From the NCBI GenBank assembly GCA_002763225.1, contig PFAI01000015.1, forward strand, positions 886 to 29,756: a DNA stretch of 28,871 nucleotides. The letters run 5' to 3'. The DNA comes from Candidatus Diapherotrites archaeon CG10_big_fil_rev_8_21_14_0_10_31_34. Lineage in GTDB: Archaea; Iainarchaeota; Iainarchaeia; Iainarchaeales; 1-14-0-10-31-34. The position numbers and the translations under genes are program-made. Under the pieces are notes generated by a model. That model had not been told where the DNA came from and did no database searches. It saw nothing but the letters and a program-made list of their open reading frames with translations. Shown here in pieces: positions 1,793 to 27,012 of this stretch. Position 1 is the stretch's first letter, and every line of letters begins with the position of its first letter.

Positions 1793-3523
1793 ATGATTTT
1801 AAAAACAAAAGTTTTTGAGTTAATGCAACTGCTGAAAAAAAAGAAAAAAGCAGAAATTGAAGAGATATCAAAAGAGTTAAACTGGGAAAAAGAAAAAGTT
1901 GAATTAAGTGCAAAAGTGCTGGAAAAAACCGGCTTAATTAATGTGATTTATCCGGCAAATGTTTTATCAAAACCGTTTATTAGATTAGAAAAAGAACCAG
2001 AAGAAAAAATTGATGTTCCGGAAAAACTAGGGAAAAATTTATCTGAATATGAATTAACTGCAGACACAAATAAAGGAAAAGTAAAAATAATTCAAAGAGA
2101 AAAAGCAGGCAGACCTTTTTATTTTTTAGAGTATGATAAAGTTGATTCAGCAACAAAAGCTTTTATGGAAGAAATCAAAGAAGAAATAGCACAAAAAATT
2201 TCAATTGAAGGAAACGGAATACAGGAAAAAGAGTTAAGGGAACAGTTTATCAAAAACGTTAATTCAACTTTATTAAATTATTTCCCCAAAGACCAGGAAA
2301 AAATAACTGAAAAACTTGCAGGAATTTTATTGCATGAAATGTATGGAATGGGCAAATTAGAATTATTAATGAAAGACAATTTATTAGAAGAAATTGCAAT
2401 TAATTCTTCTTTAAACCCGATAGCGGTTTATCACAGAGAGTATGGCTGGTTAAAAACAAATATTTTGGTTGAACAAGAAAATTTAATTGAAAATTATGCT
2501 TCACAGATTGCAAGAAAAGTTGGAAGAGAAATAACTAACTTAAATCCGATTCTTGATGCGCATTTAATGACCGGAGACAGAGTTAATGCAACTCTTTCAC
2601 CAATTTCTTCTTCAGGAAACACAATTACTATAAGAAAGTTTTCAAGAAAACCATGGACTATAACAGATTTTATTACTCCGGAAAAACACACAATGAATTC
2701 AGAAATGGCAGCATTTTTGTGGATGGCAATACATTATGAAATGAATTTAATGGTTGCCGGTTCAACTGCTTCAGGAAAAACCTCTGCATTAAATACCTTG
2801 TGTGCAATGATTCCAAGTTATCACAGAATAATTACAATAGAAGATGTAAGAGAATTAACTTTGCCTGATTATTTGAAATGGAACTGGATTCCATTAACTA
2901 CCAGAAACCCAAACCCAGAAGGGTTAGGGCAAATAAGCATGTTTGATTTAATGATGAGTTCATTAAGAATGCGCCCTGACAGAATTATTTTAGGAGAAAT
3001 GAGAAGAAGAGAAGAAGCAGAAGTATTATTTGAAGCAATGCATACAGGCCATTCAGTTTACTCCACAATTCATGCTGACTCAGGACACCAGTTAATCAGA
3101 AGATTAACTGAAGCGCCAATGGAAATTCCTTCACTTGAAATAGAAGCACTTCATTTGGTTTTAGTCCAGTACAGGGACAGAAAAACAAACAGGAGAAGAA
3201 CAATGGAAATAAGCGAAATTGACACAGGAATGCATGAAGGAAGCGTAGGAACAAACACTATTTTTCGCTGGAGCCCAAGAACTGATTCATGGGACAAAGT
3301 GAATGAACCAAATAAATTTTATGGAGAATTAAATCTGCATACAGGATTAACTGAACAAGAAATAGAAAAAGATTTAGATGAAAGAAAAAATATTTTAGAG
3401 TGGATGACAGAAAAAAAGTATAACACAGTTAACCAAGTAGGAGAAGTAATGAAAAACTATTATTCTGATTCAGGAACTGTTGCAAGAGCAGCAGAAAAAA
3501 AATTAAATTTAGACAAAATTTAG
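1793..3523 (+). CDS. Type IV pilus assembly ATPase (TadA/CpaF/ArlI family) with N-terminal wHTH-like extension
   Basis: Walker A GSTASGKT, Asp box ITIEDVREL, LRMRPDRIILGEMR (Walker B), His box TGHSVYSTIHA. Confidence 0.93.
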   Translation: MILKTKVFELMQLLKKKKKAEIEEISKELNWEKEKVELSAKVLEKTGLINVIYPANVLSKPFIRLEKEPEEKIDVPEKLGKNLSEYELTADTNKGKVKIIQREKAGRPFYFLEYDKVDSATKAFMEEIKEEIAQKISIEGNGIQEKELREQFIKNVNSTLLNYFPKDQEKITEKLAGILLHEMYGMGKLELLMKDNLLEEIAINSSLNPIAVYHREYGWLKTNILVEQENLIENYASQIARKVGREITNLNPILDAHLMTGDRVNATLSPISSSGNTITIRKFSRKPWTITDFITPEKHTMNSEMAAFLWMAIHYEMNLMVAGSTASGKTSALNTLCAMIPSYHRIITIEDVRELTLPDYLKWNWIPLTTRNPNPEGLGQISMFDLMMSSLRMRPDRIILGEMRRREEAEVLFEAMHTGHSVYSTIHADSGHQLIRRLTEAPMEIPSLEIEALHLVLVQYRDRKTNRRRTMEISEIDTGMHEGSVGTNTIFRWSPRTDSWDKVNEPNKFYGELNLHTGLTEQEIEKDLDERKNILEWMTEKKYNTVNQVGEVMKNYYSDSGTVARAAEKKLNLDKI

Positions 3524-3533
3524 GGGAAAAAAA

Positions 3534-4418
3534 ATGAGAGTAAAATTCATGCTGTTTTCAGTTGAACAGACACAAAAATTTAATCAAAGGATTTTAGTTA
3601 TCGGGGATTTCCTGCAAAAAATCTTTGTCGGAACAAAATATGATTTAAAGAAAGCAGAAATAAAAGTTGAACCGGAAAATTACCTGACTGCAACATTTTT
3701 TTCTGCAATAAGTTATGGAATAATCTTTTTTATTTTATTAACCGGATTAATTTTTGCAAGAGACGGAAATTTATCAGAAGCATTTCCATTGAATTTAATT
3801 ATAGGAATAATTTTCTTTGTTTTATTTTTCTTTCTGCATTTAATTTACCCCGGAATAATAGCCAAACAAATTGCTTTTGGAATTGACCAGAACCTGATTT
3901 TTGCTTTAAAGAGCATGCTGATTCAAGTTAAATCAGGAATCCCTTTGTTTAATGCAATAGAAAATGTGGCTAAAACAAATTATGGAGTAGTATCAGATGA
4001 ATTCAAAATAGTGGTAAAAGAAATTATGGCTGGAACGCCTGAAGCAAACGCAATAGAAAAAATGGCTTTAAGAACTAAATCAGAGTACTTAAGAAAAGCC
4101 GGCTGGCAGATAGTTAATTCAATTAAAAGCGGGGCAAGTGTTGTCGGAGCATTAGAAACAACAATTGAAACTTTAACCACAAACCAATTAAGAGCAATAA
4201 AAAATTATTCAGCTGAACTAAATTTATGGATTTTATTGTATTTATTGCTTGCAGCCGCAATCCCTACTTTAGGAATAACTTTTATGATTATTTTGTCTTC
4301 AATGGGAGGCTCAGACATAAGCGAACTGCATATAATGCTTACAATTATTTTTGCTTTTGTAATTCAGGTTGTTTTAATTGGGTTTGTTAAAAACAGAAAG
4401 CCAAAGGTGATAATGTGA
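3534..4418 (+). CDS. Type IV pilus membrane platform protein (TadB/TadC, T2SS F domain)
   Basis: Multiple TM helices and SGIPLFNAI...YGVVSDEF motif; lies directly after the ATPase. Confidence 0.88.
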   Translation: MRVKFMLFSVEQTQKFNQRILVIGDFLQKIFVGTKYDLKKAEIKVEPENYLTATFFSAISYGIIFFILLTGLIFARDGNLSEAFPLNLIIGIIFFVLFFFLHLIYPGIIAKQIAFGIDQNLIFALKSMLIQVKSGIPLFNAIENVAKTNYGVVSDEFKIVVKEIMAGTPEANAIEKMALRTKSEYLRKAGWQIVNSIKSGASVVGALETTIETLTTNQLRAIKNYSAELNLWILLYLLLAAAIPTLGITFMIILSSMGGSDISELHIMLTIIFAFVIQVVLIGFVKNRKPKVIM

Positions 4419-5431
4419 AACTATTAAGGCTTAAATTCATTTACAAAAGGCTTTCAGAAAGAGTTCCAGAAAACAAGAGAAAACAAATTCTGGTTAAAAT
4501 GGATTACGGAGGAATAAAAGAAGACATAGATGAATACACCGGAAAAAGATTTTTTTTGGCTTTGCTTTTTGGATTAATTGGTTTGTTGATTCCGTTAAGC
4601 CTGGGAAAATTAATCGGATTAGAAGAAATTTTATTGACTTTTGTTTTTGGATTGGTTCTTGGAATAATCTTTTTTTGTTTAACCCTGTTATTGTATTACC
4701 TGCATTTAGAATATCAGATTGAAGACAGGGCAAAAAGAGTTGAATCAGTTCTCCCTGATTTTTTATTGCTGGTTGCATCAAATTTAAAATCCGGAATGAC
4801 GCCATTTAATGCAACAAAAAACAGCTGCAGAGAAGAGTTCGGACCATTAGCAGAAGAAATGAAAGTAATTACAACAAGAAGTTTAGGCGTAGAGTCTTTC
4901 AGAGAAACACTAAAAATGCTGTCAGAAAAAATTGATTCAAGAATCCTAAAAGAAACAGTTTCATTTTTATCTGAAAGCATCAGGTCAGGAGGAAAACTGG
5001 CAAAATTAATTGAAGCAAGCGCAGAAGACATTTCCCAGACACAAGAACTAAAAAAAGAATTAATTTCCGGAACAAAAATGTATGTAATGTTTGTGTTGTT
5101 TGTAATAGTTGTTGCAACTCCATTGCTAATGTCAATTTCAGTCCAGTTTTTGGAAATGATTACTTCAATTCAAACAGGACAGCCGGCAATAGACGGAACA
5201 ACAAAGTTAGGTTTTCTTAGTTCACAGCTGTCAATTACGCCTGATTTCATGCAAAACATTTCTTTTATACTGCTTTTAGGAAATGCATTACTTTCAAGCC
5301 TGTTTATAGGAGTTTTAACTGAAAGAAAAGCAAAGCTGGGAATAAAATATGCGCCAATAATTTTCATTGCTTCAGCAGTATTATTTATTGGATTTAAAAC
5401 AATGGTTTCAGGAATCATTTCAGTTGCTTAA
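4415..5431 (+). CDS. Type IV pilus membrane platform protein (TadC-like, T2SS F domain)
   Basis: LPDFLLLVASNLKSGMTP...FGPLAEE and SGGKLAKL motifs with TM helices; GTGA overlap with the previous gene. Confidence 0.88.
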   Translation: MKLLRLKFIYKRLSERVPENKRKQILVKMDYGGIKEDIDEYTGKRFFLALLFGLIGLLIPLSLGKLIGLEEILLTFVFGLVLGIIFFCLTLLLYYLHLEYQIEDRAKRVESVLPDFLLLVASNLKSGMTPFNATKNSCREEFGPLAEEMKVITTRSLGVESFRETLKMLSEKIDSRILKETVSFLSESIRSGGKLAKLIEASAEDISQTQELKKELISGTKMYVMFVLFVIVVATPLLMSISVQFLEMITSIQTGQPAIDGTTKLGFLSSQLSITPDFMQNISFILLLGNALLSSLFIGVLTERKAKLGIKYAPIIFIASAVLFIGFKTMVSGIISVA

Positions 5432-5436
5432 GCAGA

Positions 5437-5449
5437 AAGGATTATAAAT
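5437..5449 (+). promoter_or_regulatory. Putative BRE/TATA box for the pilin gene
   Basis: AAAGGA-TTATAAA in the intergenic region upstream of the pilin; GGAGG RBS at 5546-5550. Confidence 0.45.
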
Positions 5450-5479
5450 GAAAAAACACTAAATAGATAGCAAAATTAG

Positions 5480-5545
5480 TTTTGATTAAACTTTTTGTAA
5501 AAGTTTATGCAAAGCATTTTTGATTAAAATTTTTGTAAAAGTTTA
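5480..5545. repeat. Two 28-bp direct repeats, each containing a palindrome
   Basis: TTTTGATTAAA(C/A)TTTTTGTAAAAGTTTA at 5480-5507 and 5518-5545 with one mismatch. The first copy contains TAAACTTTT-TGT-AAAAGTTTA. Confidence 0.9.
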
Positions 5546-5557
5546 GGAGGAAGAAAA

Positions 5558-6016
5558 ATGATTGGAAGAAAAGCACAAGGAACAACAGAATACTTAATTA
5601 TTTTAGCTGTAATTATTGTGATTGCATTAGTTGTAGTCGGAGTAATGGGCTGGGTTCCGGGGCTAAGCGGAGGAATCACAGAACAACAGTCAAGAGCATA
5701 CTGGCAATCAACTGCGCCTTTTTCAATAGTTGAATACAAGTTTGATGCAGGAGCAACAACAGCACAACTGGAAATACAAAATATTTCGGCAAACAAACTG
5801 ATTTTAACTGATGTGAAAATTGACGGAGTAACTGATAACATTACTGACGTAGCATTTAACGCAGGAGAAAGAAAATTAGTAAGCCTAACAGCAACACAAA
5901 CTTGTGGAACAGCCGGAGCAGGATTTGACTATAATGTTTCATTCACTTACAACTCAAAGAATGTTACTGGATTAGTGCAAATGGGCGACAAAGGATTAAT
6001 TGGGAAATGCGTTTAA
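5558..6016 (+). CDS. Probable major type IV pilin (class III signal peptide)
   Basis: RKA|QGTTEYLIILAVIIVIALVVV with Glu at +5, a small beta-rich head with two Cys, its own strong RBS and a terminator. Confidence 0.88.
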   Translation: MIGRKAQGTTEYLIILAVIIVIALVVVGVMGWVPGLSGGITEQQSRAYWQSTAPFSIVEYKFDAGATTAQLEIQNISANKLILTDVKIDGVTDNITDVAFNAGERKLVSLTATQTCGTAGAGFDYNVSFTYNSKNVTGLVQMGDKGLIGKCV

Positions 6017-6085: not shown

Positions 6086-6814
6086 TTATTTAGCAGTATT
6101 GGCTATTTGCGCAAAAGTTTTTGGGTTTAGTGAAGCACCGCCGACTAAAACTCCATCAACGTTTTTGATGGAAAAAATTTCTTTACAGTTTTCGGGTTTA
6201 ACGCTTCCCCCATAAAGAATTTTAGTTGAATTGGCTTTTTCTCCAAACAATTCAGTTAACTGGCTTCTGATAAAAGAATGAGCTTCAAAAACATCATTTT
6301 GTTTTGCTGTTTTTCCTGTACCAATCACCCAAACAGGTTCATAAGCAACAAAAAGTTTTGAATTAAAAAAAATGCCTTTAAGAGAATCAGATAATTGTTC
6401 ACTTAAAACAAGATTTGTTTTTTCTTCTTCTTTTTCCTCTAAAGTTTCTCCAACACATAAAATTACATTAAAATTGAACTTTAATGCAGTTTTGATTTTC
6501 TTGTTTATTGATTGATTTGATTCAGAAAATTTATGTCTTTGGTCTGAATGGCCTAACAAAACAAAATCACAGAAATCTTTTAACTGAAGAAAAGAAACTT
6601 TTCCGGTAAACTCTCCTTTTTCTTCAAAAAACGCGTCTTGAGCGCCAATAAAAACTTTTTTTGAAGCAAACTGTTTTGCAGCCGGAATGCATGGAAAAGA
6701 AGGACAGATTAAAATTTCGTTTTTTGTTTTAGAAACAAGTTTATTGAATTCATTAAAGAAATCTTTTGTTTCTTTAACTGTTTTATTCATTTTCCAGTTT
6801 CCTGCAACAAACAT
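6086..6814 (-). CDS. tpiA: Triosephosphate isomerase (bacterial-type)
   Basis: AGNWKMN, GHS, AYEPVW.IGTG, LYGGSV and LVGGASL motifs. Confidence 0.96.
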   Translation of the reverse strand: MFVAGNWKMNKTVKETKDFFNEFNKLVSKTKNEILICPSFPCIPAAKQFASKKVFIGAQDAFFEEKGEFTGKVSFLQLKDFCDFVLLGHSDQRHKFSESNQSINKKIKTALKFNFNVILCVGETLEEKEEEKTNLVLSEQLSDSLKGIFFNSKLFVAYEPVWVIGTGKTAKQNDVFEAHSFIRSQLTELFGEKANSTKILYGGSVKPENCKEIFSIKNVDGVLVGGASLNPKTFAQIANTAK

Positions 6815-6911: not shown

Positions 6912-8741
6912 ATGGAATATGAAAATGCATCCAGAAAAAAATTGATGGCTTTAGTGAAAAAAGCCCCTGAAATTGAATTAATCAAAAAAGCATTAGATAA
7001 ATCAGAAAACAATTTAAGCGGAAAACAATATTCTAATGCACTAAATACTGCTTTTATTTTAAGCCCATTGCTGATGAGAGGAAATATTATTTCTGCCGCA
7101 TTACTTTATGAAACAAAAATCAGTGAAGAAACAATAAAAAAAGAATTCAATGAAGACACAATGAAATTAATTGTTTCAATGAGAAAAATAAAAAAAATTG
7201 AATCACAGCAAAAAAATTTCAGTTCAGAAACTTTAAGCAAAATAATTCTTGCAACAACAAAAGATGTAAGAACAATAATTCTTGCTTTAGCCACAAAACT
7301 ATCTGAGTTAAGAAACACAAAAGAAGATGAAAAAAAACTTGCAAGAATAGTGAAAGAAGTTTATCTGCCAATAAGCCAGAAATTAGGATTAAATGAAATA
7401 AAATGGGAATTAGAAGACTTGTCCTTTAAAATACTTCAAAGAGAAGAATACACTAAAATAAAAAATGAAATGAAAAAAAAGAAAAAAAAAAGAGATAAAG
7501 ACTTAAAAAAAATTGAAAAAGAAATAAAAAAAGCATTAAAAAAAGAAAAAATTAACGCAAAAGTTGTGGGAAGAGCAAAAAACTTTTATGGAATATACAA
7601 TAAAATGAAGAAAAAAAAATGCAAAGTAAATGAATTGCATGACCTGCTTGCGGTAAGAGTAATCTGCAACACAATAAAAGAATGCTATATTATTCTTGGA
7701 TTAATTCATTCAATGTATGAACCATTGCTTAACGCATTTGATGATTATATTGCAAACCCAAAAGAAAACAATTACAGGTCAATTCACACAGACCTAAAAA
7801 CAGAAACAGGAAAAATATTTGAAGCACAAATCAGGACATGGGAAATGAATACTGAAGCAGAAGAAGGGCTTCCTGCACACTGGTCATACAAGCAAATAAA
7901 AAAAGACAGAGAATTTGACGGAAAACTTTCCTGGGCAAAACAATTAATTGAATGGAATAAAAAACACAAACCAAAAGATGTTTTTAACATAATTCAATTA
8001 GGGTTTGAAGACAAAAAAATTTTCACTTTAACTCCGAAAGCAGATATAATTGAACTGCCCCCAAAAGCAACTCCAATAGATTTTGCTTATGCAATTCATT
8101 CAAATATAGGGAACCAATGTGATAAAGCAAAAGTAAACGAAAAAATAGTTCCATTAAACCATGAACTGGAAAACGGAGACATTGTAGAAATAATTACTTC
8201 AAAAAAACAGTTTCCTAAAAGGCAGTGGCTGACAATAGCAAGAACTGCCAGAGCAAAAGCAAGAATAAGACAGGCACTAGAAATAACAGGAAAAGAAAGG
8301 AAAACAAAAAATCCGGAAAAACAAATAGCAAAAAAACAAATTCATTCAATAAGAATTTCAAAATGCTGTAATCCTCTTCCAGGAGACAAAATTACAGGAA
8401 TGAAAACAACTAAAAGAAAAATAACCATCCACAAGGAATCATGCAGGAATGTTTTAAGGGAAAACCCAAAAAAATTAATTCCAATTAACTGGGAAATGAT
8501 TGGAAAAAAAGAATTAACTGCAGAAATAAAAATTGAGACAACAGAAAAAATTAATTTGCTAAACACAATCCTTGATGCAATTGTATCCTTAAAAGGAAAA
8601 GTGATTTCAACTGAAGCCAAAATGGAAAACAAAAAAGTTTCATCAAAATTTGTTATTCAGGTAAAAAACCCGCAAACAATAACCAAAATAATTGAAAAAA
8701 TAGAGAAAATAGACGGAGTAAAGCAAGTTATAAGGGTTTAA
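6912..8741 (+). CDS. relA: Long RelA/SpoT homolog, (p)ppGpp synthetase with degenerate HD domain plus TGS, ZFD and ACT/RRM
   Basis: Synthetase motifs GRAKNFYGIYNKM, DLLAVRV, DYIANPKENNYRSIHT, EAQIRT; AHWSYK; TGS motif ATPIDFAYAIHS; ZFD KCCNPLPGD...IHKESC; C-terminal ACT. Confidence 0.93.
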   Translation: MEYENASRKKLMALVKKAPEIELIKKALDKSENNLSGKQYSNALNTAFILSPLLMRGNIISAALLYETKISEETIKKEFNEDTMKLIVSMRKIKKIESQQKNFSSETLSKIILATTKDVRTIILALATKLSELRNTKEDEKKLARIVKEVYLPISQKLGLNEIKWELEDLSFKILQREEYTKIKNEMKKKKKKRDKDLKKIEKEIKKALKKEKINAKVVGRAKNFYGIYNKMKKKKCKVNELHDLLAVRVICNTIKECYIILGLIHSMYEPLLNAFDDYIANPKENNYRSIHTDLKTETGKIFEAQIRTWEMNTEAEEGLPAHWSYKQIKKDREFDGKLSWAKQLIEWNKKHKPKDVFNIIQLGFEDKKIFTLTPKADIIELPPKATPIDFAYAIHSNIGNQCDKAKVNEKIVPLNHELENGDIVEIITSKKQFPKRQWLTIARTARAKARIRQALEITGKERKTKNPEKQIAKKQIHSIRISKCCNPLPGDKITGMKTTKRKITIHKESCRNVLRENPKKLIPINWEMIGKKELTAEIKIETTEKINLLNTILDAIVSLKGKVISTEAKMENKKVSSKFVIQVKNPQTITKIIEKIEKIDGVKQVIRV

Positions 8742-8818: not shown

Positions 8819-9562
8819 ATGAAAAGAGTTAAAACTGGAATAACTGGATTAGATGAATTAATTGAAGGGGGCTTTCCTGAAAAAAGATCAATGCTTGTAT
8901 CAGGGGCATGCGGAACAGGAAAAACAATTTTTTCAATGCAATACATTTACAATGGAGCAATGAAATACAATGAACCAGGAATTTATGTTACTTTAGATGA
9001 AAGACCAGAATTAATCAGAGAAGACGTAACAAGGTTTGGCTGGGATTTAAGAAAACTAGAAGAAAAAAAATTAATCAGCATAATAGATGGAAGTGTTGCA
9101 AGAATTGGAATGCCTTCAGAAGAAGAATTTGCATTACCAATGACAGGATTTGACTTAGATAAATTATTATTAGAAATAATGAGAGTAACAAAAAGAATCG
9201 GCGCAAAAAGAGTTGTAATAGACTCAATTCCTGCATTAGGATTTAACTTTGATAATGAACAAGAAACAAGAAAAGCCGTACTGAAATTAAGTTACATGCT
9301 GATGAGAATAGGCGTTACTTCAATAATGACTTCAGAAATACAGGAAGGTGCAGCCAAATTCGGAAAATACGATGTAGAAGAATATGTTGTTGATGGAGTA
9401 ATAATACTTCATTATTCCGGAATAGGCGGCGGAGGAACAAACAGAACAGTTCACATCAGAAAAATGAGAGCAACAAAACACTCAGAAGACCTGCACCCAA
9501 TTACAATCGGCAAAACAGGAATGAAAGTACACGGAATAGAAGAAGTGTATGACGAATCATAA
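8819..9562 (+). CDS. Single-domain KaiC-like (RAD55 family) RecA-superfamily ATPase
   Basis: TGITGLDELIEGG, Walker A GACGTGKT, RVVIDS, EYVVDGVI, KMRATKH. Confidence 0.92.
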   Translation: MKRVKTGITGLDELIEGGFPEKRSMLVSGACGTGKTIFSMQYIYNGAMKYNEPGIYVTLDERPELIREDVTRFGWDLRKLEEKKLISIIDGSVARIGMPSEEEFALPMTGFDLDKLLLEIMRVTKRIGAKRVVIDSIPALGFNFDNEQETRKAVLKLSYMLMRIGVTSIMTSEIQEGAAKFGKYDVEEYVVDGVIILHYSGIGGGGTNRTVHIRKMRATKHSEDLHPITIGKTGMKVHGIEEVYDES

Positions 9563-11241: not shown

Positions 11242-12771
11242 TTACTCGAATTCAATTGTTGCCGGAGGCTTCTGAGAAATATCATATAAAACTCTTGCAA
11301 CCCCGTTAACTTCATTTAAGATTCTAGAAGAAACTTTTTCTAAAAAAGAATCAGGGAATTTAGTCCAGTCAGCAGTCATTCCATCAACAGAGTTTACAGC
11401 CCTTAAAGCAACAATAAAAGAATAGTCTCTTGCATCCCCTTTAACTCCAACAGCTTTAACAGGAAAAATTGCAGCCAAAGCCTGCCAGGTTTTATCATAA
11501 AAATTGTTTTTCTTTAATTCATCAATAAAAATAAAATCAACTTCTCTTAAAATATCAAGTTTTTCTTTTGTTACTTCCCCTAAAACTCTTACGCCTAAAC
11601 CAGGGCCAGGAAAAGGGTGCCTGTCTAAAGCAGTTTTTGGAATTTTCAACAGAGTTCCTATTTCTCTTACTTCATCTTTATAAAATTCTCGTAAAGGTTC
11701 AATCAAAGACAAATTCATTTTATCAGGAAGAGAAAGATTATGATGAGACTTGATTTTTGAAGCAGTCTTTGATGGCTCGGCTGATTCAATTCTATCAGGA
11801 TAAATTGTTCCCTGCCCTAAAAAAGAAATTTTACCGTGTTTTTGTTCTAACTCAACTGCTTTGTCTTCAAAAACTTTAATAAAAGTAAAACCAATTGCTT
11901 TTCTTTTTTCTTCTGGGCCAGTTAAACCAGTTAAAACAGACAAAAATTCCTTTGAAGCATCGACAGAAAAAAAATGCTTGAAATTCATTTTTTTATATAA
12001 AGATTCAATATATTGTTTTTCGTTTTTTCTCATTAAACCGTTATCAATGAAAACACAAAACAACTGATTTGGAAGAATTTTATTAATTAAAACTGAGGCA
12101 ACCAAAGAGTCTACCCCTCCTGAAACCCCCATAAGGATTTTTTCTTCTCCAGCTTTTTCCTTAATTTCTTTTTGAATTTGCATTAAAACAGAACTGATTT
12201 TCCAGTCTTTTTTTGCAGTACAGATTTTCAAAAAATTTGAAAGAATTATTTTTCCTTTTGGAGTGTGATGAACTTCAGGATGAAACTGTAAACCAAAAAT
12301 CTTTTTGTTTTTGGAATACATTGAAGAAACTAAACAAGTTTTGGTTGAAGAAGAAACAATAAAATCTTTTGGAACAGATTTAACTGTATCAAAATGAGAA
12401 AGCCAGACTTGTTCTTTCTTTAATCCTTTAAGCAAAGGATCATTTCCTTTAACTGAAATAATGTTTTTGCCATATTCTCTTGAAGGGCCTGGTTTTATTA
12501 CTCCATTAAAGGTTTTTGCAATTAACTGCAAACCATAACAAATTCCTAAAACAGGAATTCCTAAATCAAAAATTTTACTGTCAAGCAAAGGAGCATTTAT
12601 TTCATTAACGCTTGCAGGGCCCCCTGATAAAATTATTCCGTCAGGATTTAATTTCTTTAATTCTTCTGCTGAAACAGTAAAAGGAAAAATTTCTGCTTTA
12701 GTTCCTAACTCTCTTATTTTTCTTGCAATTAAATGACAATACTGGCCTCCAAAGTTAATTACTGTAATCAT
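11242..12771 (-). CDS. guaA: GMP synthase (fused GATase and ATP-PPase)
   Basis: GICYG, QFHPEV, SGGVDS, IKSHHN, HPFPGPGL, KPPATIEFE. Confidence 0.97.
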   Translation of the reverse strand: MITVINFGGQYCHLIARKIRELGTKAEIFPFTVSAEELKKLNPDGIILSGGPASVNEINAPLLDSKIFDLGIPVLGICYGLQLIAKTFNGVIKPGPSREYGKNIISVKGNDPLLKGLKKEQVWLSHFDTVKSVPKDFIVSSSTKTCLVSSMYSKNKKIFGLQFHPEVHHTPKGKIILSNFLKICTAKKDWKISSVLMQIQKEIKEKAGEEKILMGVSGGVDSLVASVLINKILPNQLFCVFIDNGLMRKNEKQYIESLYKKMNFKHFFSVDASKEFLSVLTGLTGPEEKRKAIGFTFIKVFEDKAVELEQKHGKISFLGQGTIYPDRIESAEPSKTASKIKSHHNLSLPDKMNLSLIEPLREFYKDEVREIGTLLKIPKTALDRHPFPGPGLGVRVLGEVTKEKLDILREVDFIFIDELKKNNFYDKTWQALAAIFPVKAVGVKGDARDYSFIVALRAVNSVDGMTADWTKFPDSFLEKVSSRILNEVNGVARVLYDISQKPPATIEFE

Positions 12772-12912
12772 TTAACTGCCTCCGGAAAAATGAATAAAAA
12801 AAGAATAAAAATAGAATAAAATAAAATTAATTTTTTGTTCAACATAAATAATAATGGAAAAAAGGTATTATAATTATTTTCATGAATTAAGGAAAAAAAA
12901 GAAAGTTAAGTA

Positions 12913-13293
12913 TTACTTTGATTTAAGAATTCGAATAGCCAAGTAAGCCGCATTCTCTGCATTATCTATTCCGACACAGGCAACAGGAACACCTTTAGGC
13001 ATCTGGGAGATAGCTAATAATGCATCTAGACCCCCTAGTTTAGCAGAAACAGGCACTCCAATAACAGGTTTCTTATTATGAGAAGCAATTACCCCTGGCA
13101 AAGCAGCGTTAAGGCCTGCTATTGCAATAAAAACATCAAAATCTTTTTCTGCTATCTCTTTGATTTTTTCAGGGTCTCGATGAGCAGAAGCAACAAAAGT
13201 AGTAAAAGAAATTTTATTTTCCTTTAAAACTTTTTCAGCTTTTTCTGCAATCTTTTTATCTGACTTTGAACCCATTACAATTGCAACTTTCAT
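12913..13293 (-). CDS. purE: AIR carboxylase / N5-CAIR mutase PurE
   Basis: [27 protein letters not shown]. Confidence 0.95.
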
Positions 13294-13342
13294 AAATATA
13301 TCAACTAAATTAATGTTTTTAATTTTATTTAATTCTTTTCTT

Positions 13343-14308
13343 TTACCAATTGTGTTGCTTTTTCAATTCTTTATATTCTTCAACAACTTTTTTTAATGGT
13401 CTGGCAGAAGCAAAATTTTCTTGAATCCATTCTTGTGCAGCAGAAAGATAAAACTCTGAAATTAATTCAAGTAATTTTACAGGCAGTTCAGACGGAGCAG
13501 GCCAGTCTTCTTTTGTTTTTCCTGCACTCATTGCATCAGTTAATTCCTTTTTCCACGGAGTAGTATTATAATAATCTCTTGCAACCTGCTTGCTTACATG
13601 GATTCCGTTAAACAAAAACCTGTTTTCATCTAATGTCCCAAAAACATCAACCAACAAAAGCTTTCTTTCAGGAGAAAAAGCTGTTTCAATTTTACCATCA
13701 GCATGAACCAAATTCAAAGAAGAAGCTTTTTCATTTAAAAAAGAATTAACTTTTAAAGCAAAAGATTTTACTTGAATTAATTCACTTTGGGTTAATGCGC
13801 TTAATTCTTTTGCTTCTTTTTCAGCCAATAATCTGTCAGTTGGCTCAAGTTTAGTGAAAAACTCTATTATAGGTTTATCAAAAAAAGTGTTTGGTTTTGG
13901 GATTTCTGTAAAACCATATTGTTCAGGGGTTGCTTCACCTTTTCTAAAACGAGATAATAATGAAGAACCTTCAGGAAGCATGTTACGAAAAACAACTTCT
14001 AAAGGAATTAAATAATTTAAATCGTTTTCAGTCAACTTTCTTTTTTGAGGGTAGATTACCTGAACTAATTTTACTTTCATTTTATTTGGTTTAATAAATT
14101 CAATGAAATGAGAAGAAACATTTAGCTCAGAAATTTTTTCAAAATTATGTGAAGCCATTCTGCATAAAGCTTCTCCTTTGCCTGAAATTTTTTCAGGCAT
14201 TTTGCCGTAATCAAAAACACTGAAATCATCAGTAAAAGAAAAAATGCCTGTTCCGAAAGAATTTTCTGAAGCTTTTTTTATTACTTCCAAATCTTTAACT
14301 GAACCCAT
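13343..14308 (-). CDS. purC: SAICAR synthase (long archaeal-type)
   Basis: [42 protein letters not shown]. Confidence 0.93.
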
Positions 14309-14317
14309 AAAAAAAAC

Positions 14318-15739
14318 CTAATGCTGTTTTCTTTCACTAATCCTTGTTTCCTCAAATTCTTTTTCTGTTTCTTTTGGAATTTTAACAGGATAATTTCCGG
14401 TTAAACAAGCCATACACAAATCAGTTTTACCCAAAGCTTTTTTTAAAGAACCAAGTGAATTATAAATCAATAAATCTGCTCCAATATACTCCTGAATTTC
14501 TTTAATTGATTTTTTTGAAGCAATCAATTCTTTTTTAGAAGGCATATCAACTCCATAAAAACAAGGAGAAATAATTGGAGGGCAAGTAGAAGCAAAATAA
14601 ACTTTTTTTGCTCCGTTATCTTTCACCAGTTTAATTATTTTCTTTGAAGTAGTTCCTCTGACAATGCTGTCATCAACCAATAAAATATTTTTTCCTTTTA
14701 ATTCACTTTCAACTGGATTTAATTTCAGTCTAACTCCATTTTCTCTTTTAGCCTGGGAAGCCATAATAAAAGTTCTTCCAATATAACGATTTTTAATTAA
14801 GCCTTCCCTGTAAGGCACATTAATTGATTCAGCTAAACTTGATGCAGCAGTTCTGCTTGTATCAGGCACAGGAATAACCACATCAACTTTTAATCCTGTT
14901 TTCTTCCATTCTTCTGCTAACTGTTTTCCTAATCTTATTCTTGCAGTATAAACTTCTAAATCGTCTATAATCGATTCTGCTCCTGCAAAATAAACCCATT
15001 CAAACATGCAATGGGCTGGCTTTTCATGAGCTAAACTTTTTGAAGTAATGTTTAAATCTGAATCAACAAAAACTGCTTCGCCTGCTTTAATTGAACAAAC
15101 TAATTTATGGCCAGTTGTGGTAAGAGAAAGGCTTTCAGAAGCAAAACCAATTGATTTAATTCCATCAATGTTTTTTTCAGCCATAATTAATGGACGGATT
15201 CCATTTGGGTCACGGAAAACAAGCAATCCTTTTCCTTCAATTACTGCAATAACAGAATAAGCTCCTTTGACTTTTTCAAAAACTTTTTTTACTGCATTAA
15301 ATAATGCTTCAACTGAAAAATCTTCTGGAAGAGCCTGAGCAAAAACATGTAAAATTGCTTCAACATCACAGGCAGAAAGAAGACATTTTTTATTTAAATT
15401 TAATTCTTTTTTTAAATCCAAATAATTTGCAACATTCCCATTATGCACCATTCCAAGTTCATAAGGTTTTGAAACCATAAAAGGCTGGGCGTCAGTTAAA
15501 AAATCAGAACCAATAGTTGGATAGCGGGTATGCCCAATAGCAACATCGGCTGAAAGTTTTTCTAATTCTTTTTCTCCAAAAATGACCCCAACCAATCCTT
15601 CATTTTTGATTAACTTCATTTTGTCTTTAAAAGAAAGAATTCCAGCTGAGTCCTGGCCTCTGTGCTGCAAACAAAGCATTCCGACAAATAAGTCGGATAA
15701 AACGTCTTTTTTAGAGATGATTCCAATAATTCCACACAT
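14318..15739 (-). CDS. purF: Amidophosphoribosyltransferase
   Basis: Start reassigned to ATG 15739 (MCGIIG, N-terminal nucleophile Cys). QHRGQD, GHTRY, HNGN, VDDSIVRGTT, and Fe-S Cys residues. Confidence 0.96.
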   Translation of the reverse strand: MCGIIGIISKKDVLSDLFVGMLCLQHRGQDSAGILSFKDKMKLIKNEGLVGVIFGEKELEKLSADVAIGHTRYPTIGSDFLTDAQPFMVSKPYELGMVHNGNVANYLDLKKELNLNKKCLLSACDVEAILHVFAQALPEDFSVEALFNAVKKVFEKVKGAYSVIAVIEGKGLLVFRDPNGIRPLIMAEKNIDGIKSIGFASESLSLTTTGHKLVCSIKAGEAVFVDSDLNITSKSLAHEKPAHCMFEWVYFAGAESIIDDLEVYTARIRLGKQLAEEWKKTGLKVDVVIPVPDTSRTAASSLAESINVPYREGLIKNRYIGRTFIMASQAKRENGVRLKLNPVESELKGKNILLVDDSIVRGTTSKKIIKLVKDNGAKKVYFASTCPPIISPCFYGVDMPSKKELIASKKSIKEIQEYIGADLLIYNSLGSLKKALGKTDLCMACLTGNYPVKIPKETEKEFEETRISERKQH

Positions 15740-15856
15740 TACAAAAACCGAGGCCAATCAGTAATATAATTAAAGGAGTTAAAGAATTTAAAGTAGACTG
15801 GGAGAAATACAAAAAATAAAGAAAAAGATTATATTTAACAAAAAAGACATTTATCT

Positions 15857-16501
15857 ATGGTAAAAATTGTTTTAGTCTGGAACAAGCATCCCTCTGAAAG
15901 CCCAGTAACTTTGCATCTGGCAAAATTACTAAAATTAAATTTAGAAAAAAGAGGCCATAAAATAAAAATAGATCAAATGTCATCTAACAAAAACGAGGGG
16001 GAGAGCACATATCATTTAAGCCATATGTCTTATTTTTTAGAAAAATATCCTGATTCTTTTATAGTTGACTTGCATTCCGGGGCATATCTTTCCAGCAGGG
16101 CATATCTTTCCAGCAGAAAAGTAAAGCCGGGAAAAGAATTCAGAATTTCTTATTCTTATAGCAACCCAGTTGAAATTGAAAAAAGTTGGCCCATAATCTT
16201 CAGAGAAAATGAAAGATTTTATCAACTAGAATTTCCTTCAATTGAAGATTTTTCTAAAAATTGGGTTCTTGAAACTAATTTAAAAAAAACAAAAGCTGCA
16301 AACTACTTTTCCGAAATTGTAGTTAGAAGAGTCGCACACGCAATTAATAAGATAGTTGAATCCCCAAAAAAATTTAACGAATTTGTTAACGCACAAAAAG
16401 AAATGAAAAAACAAAAAAAAGGGAACAGAGAAAAAAATAAAAAGAAGAAGAAAACTCTAGTCGCTCGCTGGAAGAGATTAAAAAGGCATTTCAAGGGCTA
16501 A
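15857..16501 (+). CDS. Hypothetical protein, possible divergent M14/AstE-AspA-like Zn hydrolase with basic C-tail
   Basis: HPSE (HxxE) after the first beta strand, IVDLHS, and later LEFP; Lys/Arg-rich tail. Confidence 0.5.
   Translation: MVKIVLVWNKHPSESPVTLHLAKLLKLNLEKRGHKIKIDQMSSNKNEGESTYHLSHMSYFLEKYPDSFIVDLHSGAYLSSRAYLSSRKVKPGKEFRISYSYSNPVEIEKSWPIIFRENERFYQLEFPSIEDFSKNWVLETNLKKTKAANYFSEIVVRRVAHAINKIVESPKKFNEFVNAQKEMKKQKKGNREKNKKKKKTLVARWKRLKRHFKG
16080..16116 (+). repeat. 18-bp perfect in-frame tandem duplication
   Basis: GGGCATATCTTTCCAGCA x2, encoding AYLSSR twice. Confidence 0.95.
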
Positions 16502-16540
16502 AAACAAAAGCAATAAAAACAATTCAAATCATAGATATAT

Positions 16541-17878
16541 ATGTTGAAAGCTGTTTCTCCAACAGATGGAAGATATGAAGATTTGACTAAAGAATTACAG
16601 GAAATCTTCTCTGAATATGGAATGCAAAAATACCGAACAGAAGTAGAAATAAAATATTTGCTGTTTTTATCAAAAAAAAGAATAATAAGAAAATTCAATT
16701 CAAAAGAAAAAGAGTTTTTAGAAAAAATTTATTTAAAGTTTAATGAAAAAGATTCACATGAAATCAGCAGAATAGAAAAAACAACTAACCACGATGTAAA
16801 AGCAATAGAATATTTTATCAGAAAAAAAATTGAAAAAAATTCATTGAAAGATGTTGAAAGCTTTGTTCATTTTGGATTGACCTCAGAAGACATAAATAAT
16901 TTAACTAATTCAATTCAAATCAAAAAAGGGTTAGGTTTATACATAACTCAGATTTTGTTGCTGATTAAAAAATTGAGTTCAATTGCAGAAAAAGAAAAAA
17001 ACACTGCAATGTTAGGGCATACACATGGACAGCCTGCTTCCCCAACAACTTTTGGAAAAGAAGTAGCCATATTTGCTTCAAGGATTTCTGAAAGTTCGGA
17101 GATTTTGAAAGGATTAAAGCTTCCGGGAAAATTAAATTCTGCTACAGGAAACTTTAATTCTTTTTATGCTGCTTTCCCGGAAAAAAACTGGTTAAAGTTA
17201 AGCAAAGAGTTTGTTGAAAGCTTTGGGTTTGAACACAAAAAGTTAACTACCCAAATTATTCCTCATGAAAATATTTCCAGAATTTTAAATGAAATAAATT
17301 TACTGAATAATATTGTTGTTGATTTGGATTTAGATTTATGGGCATATATAAGTAAAGAATATGTTTCCCAGAAAAAAATCGGGAAAGAAACCGGAAGTTC
17401 AGTTATGCCACATAAAATTAACCCAATCCAGTTTGAAAACAGCGAAGGAAATTTATTATTAGCAAATAATTTACTTGTTTTTTTAAGTTCAAGACTGCAG
17501 AAAAGCAGGCTGCAAAGAGATTTATCAGATTCAACAATTAAAAGAAATTATGGGAATGCGTTTGGTTATTCTTTAATTGGAATAAAAATGTGTGTAAAAG
17601 GATTAGAAAGAATCCAACCAAACAGACAAAAAATGCTTGAAGAATTAAAAAACCATCCGGAAGTTTTAAGCGAAGCAGTTCAGACTATGATGAGAAAAGA
17701 AGGAAACAAAAAAGCTTACGAAGAAATGAAAAAATTCAGTAGAGGAAAAAAACTGAGTTTAGAAGAGTTAAAAAATTTTATTGAAAAAAGTTCTTTAAGC
17801 GAAAAAAGCAAAAAAATGCTTCTTAAATTAAAACCTGAAACTTATTTGGGAAAAGCAGTTGAATTAACAGATTTTTGA
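16541..17878 (+). CDS. purB: Adenylosuccinate lyase (E. coli PurB-like)
   Basis: AVSPTDGRY, TNHDVKAIEY, HFGLTSEDIN, THGQPA, GSSVMPHKINPIQFENSEGN. Confidence 0.96.
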   Translation: MLKAVSPTDGRYEDLTKELQEIFSEYGMQKYRTEVEIKYLLFLSKKRIIRKFNSKEKEFLEKIYLKFNEKDSHEISRIEKTTNHDVKAIEYFIRKKIEKNSLKDVESFVHFGLTSEDINNLTNSIQIKKGLGLYITQILLLIKKLSSIAEKEKNTAMLGHTHGQPASPTTFGKEVAIFASRISESSEILKGLKLPGKLNSATGNFNSFYAAFPEKNWLKLSKEFVESFGFEHKKLTTQIIPHENISRILNEINLLNNIVVDLDLDLWAYISKEYVSQKKIGKETGSSVMPHKINPIQFENSEGNLLLANNLLVFLSSRLQKSRLQRDLSDSTIKRNYGNAFGYSLIGIKMCVKGLERIQPNRQKMLEELKNHPEVLSEAVQTMMRKEGNKKAYEEMKKFSRGKKLSLEELKNFIEKSSLSEKSKKMLLKLKPETYLGKAVELTDF

Positions 17879-19165
17879 GTCTTTTGAACAGGTATCATCT
17901 CTTTCTGCCCCAAAAGACACTGTTTTAATCGGAACATTTAATTCTTTTTCAATAAACTCTAAATATTTTTTTGCATGTTCATCTAAAGCAGAATAACCTT
18001 TTTCTTTTAGCTCTTTTTGCTGTTCTTTATTTATTGAAAAACCTTTAAATTCTGAGTAATGAGGAACTGCTTTTGCAACTAAATGATTTGCATAAGGAAA
18101 ATCAAAAAACTTTTTTCCTTCAATTAAATAATAATCTGCAATAAGAAGTTTTTTTATCCCGCTTAAAACATCTAATTTAGTTATTGCAATTTCAGTAAAA
18201 CCATTTAACCTATTTGACATGCGGAGCATTGGTAAATCCAGCCAGCCAACTCTTCTTGCTCTTCCGGTTGTAGTCCCAAACTCATTTCCTGCGTTTCTTA
18301 AAAAATCTGCTTCTTCCCCTGAAATTTCTGTCGGAAAAGGGCCTGAACCAACTCTAGTAGTATAAGCTTTAACTATTCCAATAATTCTTTCAGAAATTTT
18401 TTGAGGGGAAATCCCTATTCCTGTTGTTGCCGCACCAGAAGTCGGATGAGAAGAAGTAACAAAAGGATAGGTTCCAAAATCATTGTCTAACAAAGTTCCT
18501 TGAGCACCTTCAAACAAAACTTTTTTTCCTTTATCCAAACATTCATTGACTTCAAGTGAAACATCAGTTAACATTTCCTTGAATTCTTTTCCTAAAGCAG
18601 AATATTGTTTGAAAACTTCTTCTTGGGTGAAATCAAAATGTTTGTTTAAAATTTTTTCACACACATTTTTATAATAAGGATAATTAAAATCAAGTTTTTC
18701 TTTTAACCTTTTTTCATCAACTAAATCATCAAACCTAATTCCAATTCTTGATGCCCTGTCAGCATAGCATGGACCGACTCCTCTTCTGGTTGTTCCAATA
18801 TTTTTTTCTTTTAAAGCTTCTTCTTTCCCAATATCAATCACATTATGCCAGGGCATAATTATCTGGCATCTTGGGTCAATGCCCAAATTTACTTTAATTC
18901 CTTTTTCTTTTAATCCATCTATTTCCTGTTTTAAAACTCTTGGATCCAATGAAACCCCTGTTCCAATCAAAGAACGTTTTTTTCTTACAACCCCTGAAGG
19001 AAGCAAATGCAGTTTGAATACTTTATCTTTTACTACCACAGTATGCCCTGCGTTATTTCCCCCTTGGTATCTTACAACATAATCAGATTGTTCAGCTAAA
19101 CAATCAACTAATTTGCCTTTTCCTTCATCCCCAAACTGGGAGCCAATAACCATAGTTGAACTCAT
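17864..19165 (-). CDS. purA: Adenylosuccinate synthetase
   Basis: Start reassigned to ATG 19165 because the listed extension runs through a tRNA. QFGDEGKGK, GGNNAGHT, EGAQG, GTTTGRARR, TKLDVL. Confidence 0.97.
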   Translation of the reverse strand: MSSTMVIGSQFGDEGKGKLVDCLAEQSDYVVRYQGGNNAGHTVVVKDKVFKLHLLPSGVVRKKRSLIGTGVSLDPRVLKQEIDGLKEKGIKVNLGIDPRCQIIMPWHNVIDIGKEEALKEKNIGTTRRGVGPCYADRASRIGIRFDDLVDEKRLKEKLDFNYPYYKNVCEKILNKHFDFTQEEVFKQYSALGKEFKEMLTDVSLEVNECLDKGKKVLFEGAQGTLLDNDFGTYPFVTSSHPTSGAATTGIGISPQKISERIIGIVKAYTTRVGSGPFPTEISGEEADFLRNAGNEFGTTTGRARRVGWLDLPMLRMSNRLNGFTEIAITKLDVLSGIKKLLIADYYLIEGKKFFDFPYANHLVAKAVPHYSEFKGFSINKEQQKELKEKGYSALDEHAKKYLEFIEKELNVPIKTVSFGAERDDTCSKDSKIC

Positions 19166-19203
19166 AACCTTCAAAATAAGGTGAGAAGAATTTAAAAAAA
19201 GAA

Positions 19204-19321
19204 TGAGGCTGGCGGGGTTTGAACCCGCGACACCACGGTCTTCAGCCGTGTGCTCTCCAAAGCCTATCATGAGCTAATAAAAAAAATATTCCTCTGTGAT
19301 ATCAGACTGAGCTACAGCCTC
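19204..19321 (-). tRNA. tRNA-Phe(GAA) with a 44-nt D-loop intron (19259-19302)
   Basis: Acceptor stem GAGGCTG/CAGCCTC-A, anticodon arm CACGG-CTGAAGA-CCGTG, T arm GCGGG-TTCAAAC-CCCGC. The D arm is interrupted by an insert forming a bulge-helix-bulge. Confidence 0.93.
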
Positions 19322-19327: not shown

Positions 19328-20299
19328 TTAATAAATAGGGTGTGCAAGTGTTTTAAATTTATTTGTTGTCATCAACGAAACCATTTTATTAAGACGCCAT
19401 TGTTTCACTGGGTGAATAAACAATATTTCATTATTAAGTTTTTCAATATCTTTGTGTCTTTCTATTTGAATATAGCTAGACTGTTTACCCAAATCAAAAT
19501 AAGGCCCATTTACACTAATATTAAAAACCTCCTGCAAAATTTCTTTCATTGATTTTATAAAATTGTGTGATTTCATTCTAAGCTTTATTCTTGGTTGAGA
19601 GTTTAATCCTCTTTCAACGGCCCTCGTATCTCCATCTGCATCAAAAACTCCTCGTATAAACCATTTCTTAATTTCCGGAAAAGAATTTTCAATCAAAATA
19701 GGAACTTTTAAAGTCTCATATTTTTTGCCTGAAGGAACCCCAAAAACTTCGGTTAAAAAACGGTAAATTACTTTGTTTGTTGGGTTTAGATAATAAAGCT
19801 GTTCTCCTTTTTGTATTCTTTCAGTTCTAATTGGAAACACTGCACCAAATAACTCATAAAACAATTTTTTTATTTTTTTAATTTGTTCTAAAAATTCATC
19901 TCCAACAATAATTTTGTGTTCAAACCTTCTGGTTTTTAAGTAAGTTTTTTTAATGTCTTTTAAACCACCATCCCCTAAAAAATAACCAACAAAATAAGCT
20001 AATTTTGGGTTAAGTTTTTTTGGCAAATTTATTGGTTTAGCCCCTTTTGCTTTCACAAATTTAAAATTGGAATAAATTTTTTTAGTGTTTTTAAGTAAGA
20101 AATCAGAGTCTATGACAAAAAATTGACCTTCTGAAAAACATTTCAGATAAGAAGCTTTTTCATCAATTTCTTCAATATATAAATCAGGCAAATAATTTGG
20201 AAGATTGGTTGCGGGTGCGTTTTTGATTTTAATTTCTTTAAGCTGTTCTTTTAGAATTTTTCCATATTTGGTTTTTAAAAATAAATTAGTCGACATCAC
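19328..20299 (-). CDS. Free-standing two-motif LAGLIDADG endonuclease-like protein
   Basis: LAYFVGYFLGDG and WFIRGVFDADG motifs with acidic catalytic positions retained; no intein splicing motifs visible. Confidence 0.85.
   Translation of the reverse strand: MMSTNLFLKTKYGKILKEQLKEIKIKNAPATNLPNYLPDLYIEEIDEKASYLKCFSEGQFFVIDSDFLLKNTKKIYSNFKFVKAKGAKPINLPKKLNPKLAYFVGYFLGDGGLKDIKKTYLKTRRFEHKIIVGDEFLEQIKKIKKLFYELFGAVFPIRTERIQKGEQLYYLNPTNKVIYRFLTEVFGVPSGKKYETLKVPILIENSFPEIKKWFIRGVFDADGDTRAVERGLNSQPRIKLRMKSHNFIKSMKEILQEVFNISVNGPYFDLGKQSSYIQIERHKDIEKLNNEILFIHPVKQWRLNKMVSLMTTNKFKTLAHPIY
19351..19357 (-). promoter_or_regulatory. Putative TATA box for tRNA-Phe, inside the LAGLIDADG 3' end
   Basis: TTTAAAA on the minus strand about 30 nt upstream of tRNA G1. 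Confidence 0.4.
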
Positions 20300-20423: not shown

Positions 20424-20425
20424 AA

Positions 20426-20498
20426 CGAGCCCAAGGGGATTCGAACCCCTGACATCCAGCTTAAGAGGCTGGCGCTCTACCGACTGAGCTATGGGCCC
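20426..20498 (-). tRNA. tRNA-Lys(CTT)
   Basis: GGGCCCATAGCTCAGTCGGTAGAGCG-CCAGC-CTCTTAA-GCTGG...GGTTCGAATCC...GGGCTCG; 73 nt, CCA not encoded. Confidence 0.96.
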
Positions 20499-20587
20499 AA
20501 CAACTTTAAAAAAAGTTGTACAAAAAAACAAGGCTTACTTTAAAATTAAACTGCAAAAGTTTTAAGAACAAAATGAGGTTTAAGACA

Positions 20588-20642
20588 GCATCATCGAACC
20601 AAAGCGAAGATGATGCATCGTGCTTAAACGGCGAAACGTTTA
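20588..20642 (-). ncRNA. Structured 3' trailer of tRNA-Lys(TTT): two hairpins
   Basis: TAAACG/CGTTTA stem (20625-20642) and GCATCATC/GATGATGC stem (20588-20616); the loop is nearly identical to that of the other trailer. Confidence 0.55.
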
Positions 20643-20715: not shown

Positions 20716-20829
20716 AAAACTTTTAAAAAAAGTTGTGGTAAAAAACATTTTGTATTAAAAAAATATTACTTCAATAAAAATATAAATGTGCTTTAGAAGC
20801 AGTAAAAGAATTAAGTAAAAAAAGTTATA

Positions 20830-27008: not shown

Positions 27009-27012
27009 TTAA

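Follow-up and report, generated by a model that had tools for sequence, protein, structure and literature searches.

In this study, we analysed a stretch of 28,871 nucleotides from Candidatus Diapherotrites archaeon CG10_big_fil_rev_8_21_14_0_10_31_34 (contig PFAI01000015.1, positions 886 to 29,756), hereafter the window, and found a long RelA/SpoT homologue (RSH) gene whose product is very probably a synthetase-only enzyme. The gene would encode a monofunctional synthetase of the alarmone (p)ppGpp, of the long-RSH kind written [hS] by Atkinson et al. It would form half of a two-gene alarmone circuit, in which the window protein makes (p)ppGpp and a [Hs] hydrolase encoded on another contig of the same genome (C47) removes it. 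Both halves may descend from a bifunctional short-linker Rel that passed from bacteria to DPANN archaea and was followed by duplication and complementary degeneration. Taken as a whole –an [hS] synthetase, half of a two-gene circuit, duplicated from a bacterial-derived Rel and with a RelA-like trigger– we consider this reading reasonably probable. The domain architecture, the residue states, the paralogue, its distribution, the synteny and the soundness of the contig are observed here; from them we infer what the enzymes do and make, that ribosomes and tRNA trigger synthesis and which way the duplication ran, and we assign synthesis of (p)ppGpp to one copy and its removal to the other because of the state of their key residues and what is known of the family. 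By the same residue states, we call the window protein's kind type S (dead hydrolase, live synthetase) and the C47 protein's kind type H (hydrolase residues kept, most synthetase residues lost).

At the gene level, the RSH gene is an intact open reading frame (ORF) of 609 aa with an ATG start. The gene and its domains are located as follows:

6912..8741, + strand: type S long RSH gene (ORF; Pfam HD_4, RelA_SpoT, TGS and ACT_4)
6978..7391, + strand: pseudo-hydrolase (HD) domain, aa 23-160 (HD_4, 64.6 bits, weak; 0/5 key residues)
7569..7895, + strand: predicted (p)ppGpp synthetase domain, aa 220-328 (RelA_SpoT, 126 bits)
8025..8198, + strand: TGS domain with the putative CCA-reading H396, aa 372-429 (TGS, 76 bits)
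8199..8351, + strand: remnant of the helical (AH) domain and disordered linker, aa 430-480 (AlphaFold model, alignment)
8352..8501, + strand: zinc-finger/ribosome-intersubunit domain (ZFD/RIS), aa 481-530 (aligns with RelA from 608)
8508..8735, + strand: ACT/RRM domain, aa 533-608 (ACT_4, 37.7 bits)

The four Pfam domains all exceed their cut-offs and follow the order of a long RSH (HD-like, RelA_SpoT, TGS, and a C-terminal ACT/RRM). Among solved structures, mycobacterial Rel 8fr8 was the best match (1.4e-100), followed by Bacillus subtilis Rel 6yxa (2.7e-94) and ribosome-bound Escherichia coli RelA. The AlphaFold model built with 66 relatives as input was confident (predicted local distance difference test, pLDDT, 84.1; predicted template modelling score, pTM, 0.75), with a predicted beta-alpha-beta-beta-alpha-beta fold in its ACT region. 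Foldseek matched this model to RelA 5iqr at 6.5e-34, and also to Rel 6yxa, 7qpr and full-length SpoT. For the ZFD region, PF28438 is a precomputed annotation on the protein's sequence cluster. A small alarmone synthetase (SAS) was ruled out as an identity for this protein, which carries five further domains and scored 38 bits against the YjbM model, whose cut-off is 320.

We scored the active sites on an alignment of 329 sequences, using five key hydrolase positions (the His of HP, HD, ED, the Asp of LADR, and the Asn) and seven key synthetase positions. The window protein retained 0/5 of the former and 7/7 of the latter; on the same alignment, the controls scored 0/5 and 7/7 for E. coli RelA, and 5/5 and 7/7 for SpoT. 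The hydrolase losses are visible in three places: YSNALNTA at aa 40 presents NAL where the histidine of 'IHP' is expected, AALLYET at aa 62 stands against LLHDVVED in B. subtilis Rel with a 4-residue deletion at HDxxED (LLY, gap, E), and LATKLSELR at aa 126 replaces LADRLHNMR. These pseudo-hydrolase substitutions vary between type S families, and HD was the least conserved domain of type S (n = 31), with a mean pairwise identity of 0.28 vs. 0.45 for the synthetase, 0.55 for TGS, and 0.48 for ZFD. In the synthetase domain, D244, E304, and Q306 align with RelA D275, E335, and Q337, and AFDD at aa 275-278 aligns with EFDD at 306-309 of E. coli RelA. Ten residues of this domain (R221, K223, K231, D244, R249, D278, Y288, H292, E304, and Q306) do not vary among 66 relatives; across these relatives, each only 35-74% identical to the window protein, 35 columns are invariant. 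The HD domain would be a structural relic, next to an apparently complete synthetase site. A RelA-like, synthetase-only residue pattern had been proposed in an earlier note made from the letters of the window, and the scores obtained here bear it out; every motif quoted there (AALLYET, LATKLSELR, the missing HP, xFDD, YAIHS, ZFD, and ACT) was located.

One argument of that note did not hold, namely that xFDD points to a RelA-like enzyme with a lost hydrolase. The EXDD motif is a mark of the RelA subfamily. On the one hand, an xxDD motif was present in 38/52 type S proteins (EFDD in 22/52), and RFKD in 107/115 bacterial long Rels. On the other hand, 21/32 archaeal bifunctional forms with an intact HD also carry it, as EFDD, RFDD or QFDD. 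Because these relatives share the motif, xFDD is not diagnostic of a dead hydrolase; it appears to have arisen before the hydrolase was lost and is no marker of that loss here.

The candidate partner came from scanning all 65 contigs of the assembly (1.04 Mb, 81% complete) with Pfam, which detected a second long RSH of 600-606 aa on contig C47 (L003:340-3449 region). Its HD_4 match reached 128-131 bits and all five hydrolase positions are kept (5/5; FIHP, LLHDVVEDTE, KLADKYHNL). Its RelA_SpoT match reached just 63-66 bits and the synthetase score was 2/7: GRxK is gone, and KIYIRT is read where active enzymes have E.QIRT. The TGS motif is FAYAVDS, with an Asp in place of the His, and the CC motif and zinc finger are gone, while the ACT domain is kept. 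Among type H proteins (n = 22), the mean pairwise identity was 0.45 for HD, 0.36 for the synthetase, and 0.38 for TGS, with ZFD absent. In families f11 (g28), f16, and f30 (g70), type H proteins have 480-498 aa and end after TGS, so ACT is lost too. The C47 protein can probably only destroy the alarmone, and the residue patterns make it quite likely that the window synthetase and the C47 hydrolase form a functional pair. A separate hydrolase had been anticipated in the earlier note, and one is indeed encoded; this hydrolase is a paralogue of the long-RSH kind whose synthetase is dead, rather than the small alarmone hydrolase (SAH/Mesh1) or Nudix enzyme named there. The scan of this 81% complete genome gave neither a NUDIX nor a Ppx-GppA match.

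To place both proteins within the window's phylum, we used a sample of 215 species genomes, 58 of them high-quality. The RelA_SpoT domain (PF04607) was found in 162/215 genomes (45/58 of the high-quality ones), and an HD_4 match in 143/215. A 2021 paper (PMC8407392) gives RelA/SpoT in 69% of Diapherotrites with a predicted bacterial origin; the 'few DPANN genomes' of the earlier note was an underestimate. In genomes with two matches, the best synthetase and best hydrolase matches lie on separate loci. We took 92 RSH frames from 60 regions and 32 loci of the phylum and dropped five fragments; the remaining 87 ORFs comprised 52 type S, 35 type H, and no bifunctional protein. The TGS His was present in 52/52 type S and the CC motif in 50/52, whereas type H lost the His in 33/35 and the CC motif in 35/35. 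A profile built from 24 type H proteins (E<=1e-120) placed type H in 73/215 genomes, that is, 75 matches minus G019 and G159, whose matches were S loci. Thus, the synthetase/hydrolase pair is a lineage-wide trait. Mapped on the type S tree, the presence of H requires at least 6 changes among 31 rows.

Some genomes presented particular arrangements. In G083, G124, G132, G144, and G150, a hydrolase-dead type S was found and no hydrolase-type RSH; NUDIX genes are present there. G177 (L094, contig C4) harbors, together with a long type S, a 206-aa single-domain SAS-like synthetase with EFDD and E.QIRT. In G017 (L061, contig C36), the type S copy is broken by one in-frame TGA into pieces of 244 and 382 aa.

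Regarding the origin of the pair, a third group of archaeal relatives is relevant: a bifunctional short-linker Rel of 630-650 aa with HD 5/5 and synthetase 7/7 (32 proteins; P0145, P0063, P0072, and others). Their submitter labels are 'archaeon' and 'Nanoarchaeota archaeon', and the proteins closest to that of the window were submitted as 'archaeon', 'Candidatus Micrarchaeota archaeon', and 'Candidatus Diapherotrites archaeon'. The bifunctional DPANN forms have a TGS-ZFD linker of 84-100 residues, vs. 156-211 in 115 bacterial long Rels, and are 53-56% identical to the Rel of Carboxydothermus, Thermovenabulum, and Halanaerobium. As named outgroups, we used generic bacterial Rel with 36-51% identity to the bifunctional short forms among the matches listed. 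The maximum-likelihood tree (98 rows, LG+G4, with the Shimodaira–Hasegawa-like approximate likelihood ratio test, SH-aLRT) included one or two proteins per family and the named bacteria: 31 S, 22 H and 15 short bifunctional forms, next to 30 bacterial rows with E. coli RelA and SpoT among them. The archaeal rows together formed one clan (SH-aLRT 99) apart from the 30 bacterial rows, and both type S (99) and type H (100) were monophyletic. One bacterial row, 'Priestia' (L142), sits on a branch of length 3.4 and probably represents a wrongly chosen ORF; it was kept and stands outside the archaeal clan. A tree constrained to join S and H had a log-likelihood 55 above the free quick search (p-value of the approximately unbiased test, p-AU, 0.92).

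The tree fits one transfer from bacteria to DPANN archaea, with loss of the helical core and then duplication and complementary decay, and the donor of the DPANN forms was likely a bacterial bifunctional Rel lineage. Against subfamily models, which the earlier note had suggested together with a phylogeny, the window protein scored 344 bits for the RelA equivalog NF008124 (cut-off 728) and 332 bits for the SpoT equivalog NF008303 (cut-off 947), and it falls outside the bifunctional [HS] class.

At the sensing level, the synthetase copy retained residues that RelA uses on the ribosome. In DFAYAIHS at aa 390, H396 aligns with E. coli RelA H432, and CC at 485/486 with H507 and C511 align with the CC...H...C motif of RelA; none of H396, C485, C486, H507, and C511 varies among 66 synthetase-bearing relatives. 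Two papers give RelA H432 a role at the CCA end (PMC7797070) and describe binding of the RelA ZFD/RIS and ACT to the A-site finger, uS19, and uL16 (PMC4974054). In the window protein, ZFD and ACT would anchor the synthetase on the ribosome, and H396 of TGS would read the 3' CCA end left free on an uncharged tRNA in the A site. A RelA-like trigger is the likeliest one because the CCA-reading His and the zinc-finger motif stay with the synthetase copy and are dropped by the hydrolase copy; we put this ribosome/tRNA trigger forward tentatively, as somewhat short of an even chance.

The region between TGS and ZFD is where the protein departs from RelA. The distance from H396 to C485 is 89 residues vs. 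180 from H432 to C612 in RelA, and the helical region has ~90 residues fewer than in Rel and RelA. After TGS, the model presents only helices 439-442 and 446-456, followed by disorder at 462-478 (pLDDT <50), so no full AH domain is recognized there. PF19296 is absent from the close relatives of the window protein, and the shortened region is common to all archaeal relatives examined. It is the mark of a variant and not an exclusion from the long RSH superfamily. The claim that the sensing domains are intact stood in part: the TGS His, CCHC, and ACT are kept, and only around half of the helical domain is left. In RelA, the AH core and linker helix 2 pack on the tRNA D stem and on ACT (PMC4974054). 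Without this core, the window protein would have to hold the tRNA body in another way than RelA does.

Several observations weigh against this reading, each on a different part of it. Regarding the family assignment, the window protein scored 488.6 bits against NCBIfam TIGR00691 (spoT_relA), slightly below the cut-off of 499.2; the match consists of two stretches, broken where the helical domain is missing. Regarding the pair as a necessity, entire families have type S and lack type H (type H in 0/6 genomes of f12, 0/38 of f14, 0/7 of f2, and 0/22 of f8), including G083 of f12, a closed single-contig genome that is 99% complete and has type S but no type H. Therefore, a dedicated RSH hydrolase is not indispensable in many relatives. 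NUDIX genes, possible hydrolase substitutes, were found in 200/215 genomes, with just 1/5 among the other genomes of the window's genus (g1). An alternation of the two, with NUDIX compensating where type H is missing and absent where it is present, was rejected, as these genes are present in the 200/215 genomes regardless of H.

The duplication and the trigger face objections of their own. In the free tree, S, H, and one bifunctional subgroup formed an unresolved three-way split (88), and a long-branch pull between the fast-evolving domains of S and H could join both under LG+G4. For the trigger, the window protein lacks the AH core and linker helix 2, and in B. subtilis Rel a stable tRNA complex was obtained with a TGS-Helical fragment and not with TGS alone (PMC7797070). 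Finally, (p)ppGpp was undetected in any archaeon as of 2021 according to PMC8646023, and no RNA run was listed with the window gene among 24 runs.

The objections to the trigger favor the rival that survives best, an active synthetase-only RSH controlled off the ribosome by an ACT ligand, by a KaiC-like ATPase or by expression level, with TGS and ZFD serving autoinhibition or oligomerisation. The tRNA-holding helical domain of RelA/Rel is halved in the window protein, which together with the behavior of the B. subtilis TGS is what this rival would expect. Archaeal ribosomes are also unlike the bacterial ones where the enzyme family evolved. Besides, a KaiC-like ATPase lies 3' of type S on the same strand in 14/19 loci of other genomes and in the window itself; the complex prediction for the type S protein and this neighbor gave no answer (score 0.00). 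What speaks for the ribosome is the sorting of the sensing residues: the CCA-stacking His is invariant in 66 relatives and in all type S proteins and lost in nearly all type H, and the CCHC motif is in 50/52 type S vs. 0/35 type H. We regard control off the ribosome as a serious rival, somewhat less likely than the RelA-like trigger, and keep the latter as the preferred explanation.

A silent pseudo-enzyme or decaying gene left over from the bacterial transfer would account for the lack of an RNA run with the gene and for the in-frame TGA of the relative G017. It is very unlikely for a gene with an intact 609-aa frame, 7/7 synthetase residues and 35 columns invariant at 35-74% identity, kept in 162/215 small, reduced genomes with conserved synteny and a confident structure model. 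More improbable still is that the enzyme remains bifunctional, its divergent HD hydrolysing (p)ppGpp with other residues. The HD-like fold is kept, and many related genomes have no type H gene; nevertheless, all five metal-binding/catalytic positions are substituted, four residues are deleted at HDxxED, the substitutions vary by family in the least conserved domain (0.28), and the textbook example of a dead hydrolase, E. coli RelA, scores the same.

Bacteria are the typical carriers of long RSHs and the nearest bacterial proteins are 40-43% identical, yet an assembly or binning error that placed bacterial DNA in an archaeal contig –a chimera that the earlier note had wanted checked– has a negligible chance, with archaeal marker genes on both sides in the 28.9-kb window (aTrm56, TFE-alpha, a class III signal-peptide pilin, and class I LysRS), an even GC content (0.28-0.34 throughout, 0.28-0.30 over the RSH gene), contigs of four further groundwater runs (none flagged as a possible source) spanning both junctions (with the upstream triosephosphate isomerase, TIM, and with the KaiC-like gene), orthologues with the same neighbors in many genomes across the phylum, some of them assembled as a single contig, and all archaeal copies in one clan with the 30 bacterial rows outside.

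At the genomic context level, the arginyl-tRNA synthetase (ArgRS) gene is directly upstream of type H on the same strand in 18/19 loci and in the window's own genome; there, its stop overlaps or abuts the type H start. A second tRNA synthetase gene converges on type H in 15/19 loci (five with an alanyl-tRNA synthetase and ten with a class I enzyme). The ArgRS-type H arrangement looks like an operon tying alarmone removal to tRNA charging. The other features of the window are:

1793-6016: archaeal type IV pilus locus (T2SSE-type ATPase, two T2SSF-type platform genes, class III signal-peptide pilin)
6086..6814, - strand: TIM, divergent upstream neighbor of the RSH gene (PF00121, 276 bits)
8819..9562, + strand: KaiC-like single-domain ATPase (PF06745, 254 bits), 77 nt downstream of the RSH gene
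11242-19270: purine-nucleotide gene run, 2.5 kb downstream of the RSH gene
19328-20299, - strand: 323-aa ORF with LAGLIDADG_3, directly upstream of adenylosuccinate synthetase
20425-20716: two tRNA-Lys genes
23446-23521: tRNA-Met
25675-27930: tyrosine recombinase (Phage_integrase, 160 bits) and 'phage metallopeptidase' domain protein, near the 3' end

A divergent TIM was found upstream of type S in 11/19 loci, the upstream ORF having been submitted for 14. This neighbor is of two kinds, one of 242-268 aa and 271-285 bits in the window's genus and f26, and another of ~230-250 aa and 80-123 bits elsewhere, and looks like an in-place replacement by the other TIM type. The purine run contains GMP synthase, PurE, PurC, a PurF-like amidotransferase, adenylosuccinate lyase, and adenylosuccinate synthetase. 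Several purine-nucleotide enzymes of these kinds are (p)ppGpp targets in bacteria. The LAGLIDADG_3 ORF is a possible homing endonuclease, and the region with the recombinase and the metallopeptidase may be what is left of an integrated element.

The stringent response is seen as belonging to bacteria and plastids, and the 2011 RSH survey describes only small, single-domain archaeal RSHs (PMC3153485). RelA/SpoT genes of DPANN archaea were already published, and the split pair would be the new part. In the literature searched, there was no archaeal pair of a synthetase-only and a hydrolase-only protein, and both the shortened helical domain and the ArgRS link were undescribed; the 2019/2020 RSH census supplements (bioRxiv 10.1101/575399), outside the search, may list archaeal long RSHs. 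A whole archaeal lineage with ~1-Mb genomes keeps complementarily decayed S and H long RSHs with conserved links to tRNA synthetase genes, repeating the split between RelA and SpoT independently in Archaea. The regulatory parts are sorted as well, the TGS His and zinc finger going with synthesis and neither with hydrolysis. With two defined proteins and defined point mutants, an archaeal stringent response becomes directly testable, and a long RSH without the helical core tests how much tRNA grip is needed. We can go one step further, as a conjecture held more loosely than the trigger itself: a complete stringent circuit, vertically inherited, would operate in an archaeal order, with a RelA-like sensor docked on the ribosome by ZFD and ACT and reading CCA with H396 and no helical core, and a SpoT-like hydrolase, co-transcribed with ArgRS and mostly next to a second tRNA synthetase gene, that resets the signal. 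If true, it would be the first alarmone system coupled to the ribosome in Archaea.

When compared to known systems, the window protein resembles E. coli RelA in domain order, the 0/5 and 7/7 scores, xFDD, the TGS His, CC...H...C, and ACT, and in being paired with a separate long-RSH hydrolase. It differs in having A275 in the position of the Glu of EFDD, in belonging to the archaeal clan (99) and not to the bacterial rows of the tree, in its host –an archaeon, with an archaeal ribosome– and in missing the AH core and linker helix 2. The window protein would work like RelA, yet by descent it lies outside the proteobacterial RelA subfamily. The bacterial bifunctional Rel proteins (B. subtilis 6yxa, mycobacterial 8fr8, and Firmicute relatives) are its best solved matches; unlike it, they have a live HD, RFKD, and the full helical domain. 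The bifunctional DPANN Rel shares its clan (99), the shortened TGS-ZFD linker and, mostly, xFDD, and keeps both active sites, whereas the window protein is without the hydrolase. The closest parallel for the pair is that of the Moraxellaceae, whose RelA[hS] and SpoT[Hs] are called a 'more complete' subfunctionalisation by Atkinson et al. 2011 (PMC3153485). In both cases, a long RSH was duplicated and one copy would serve synthesis only and the other hydrolysis only. The archaeal pair would represent an independent event inside the archaeal clan and, when compared to SpoT[Hs] of the Moraxellaceae, its type H has also lost the zinc finger and the TGS His, and ACT too in some families, and is located behind ArgRS.

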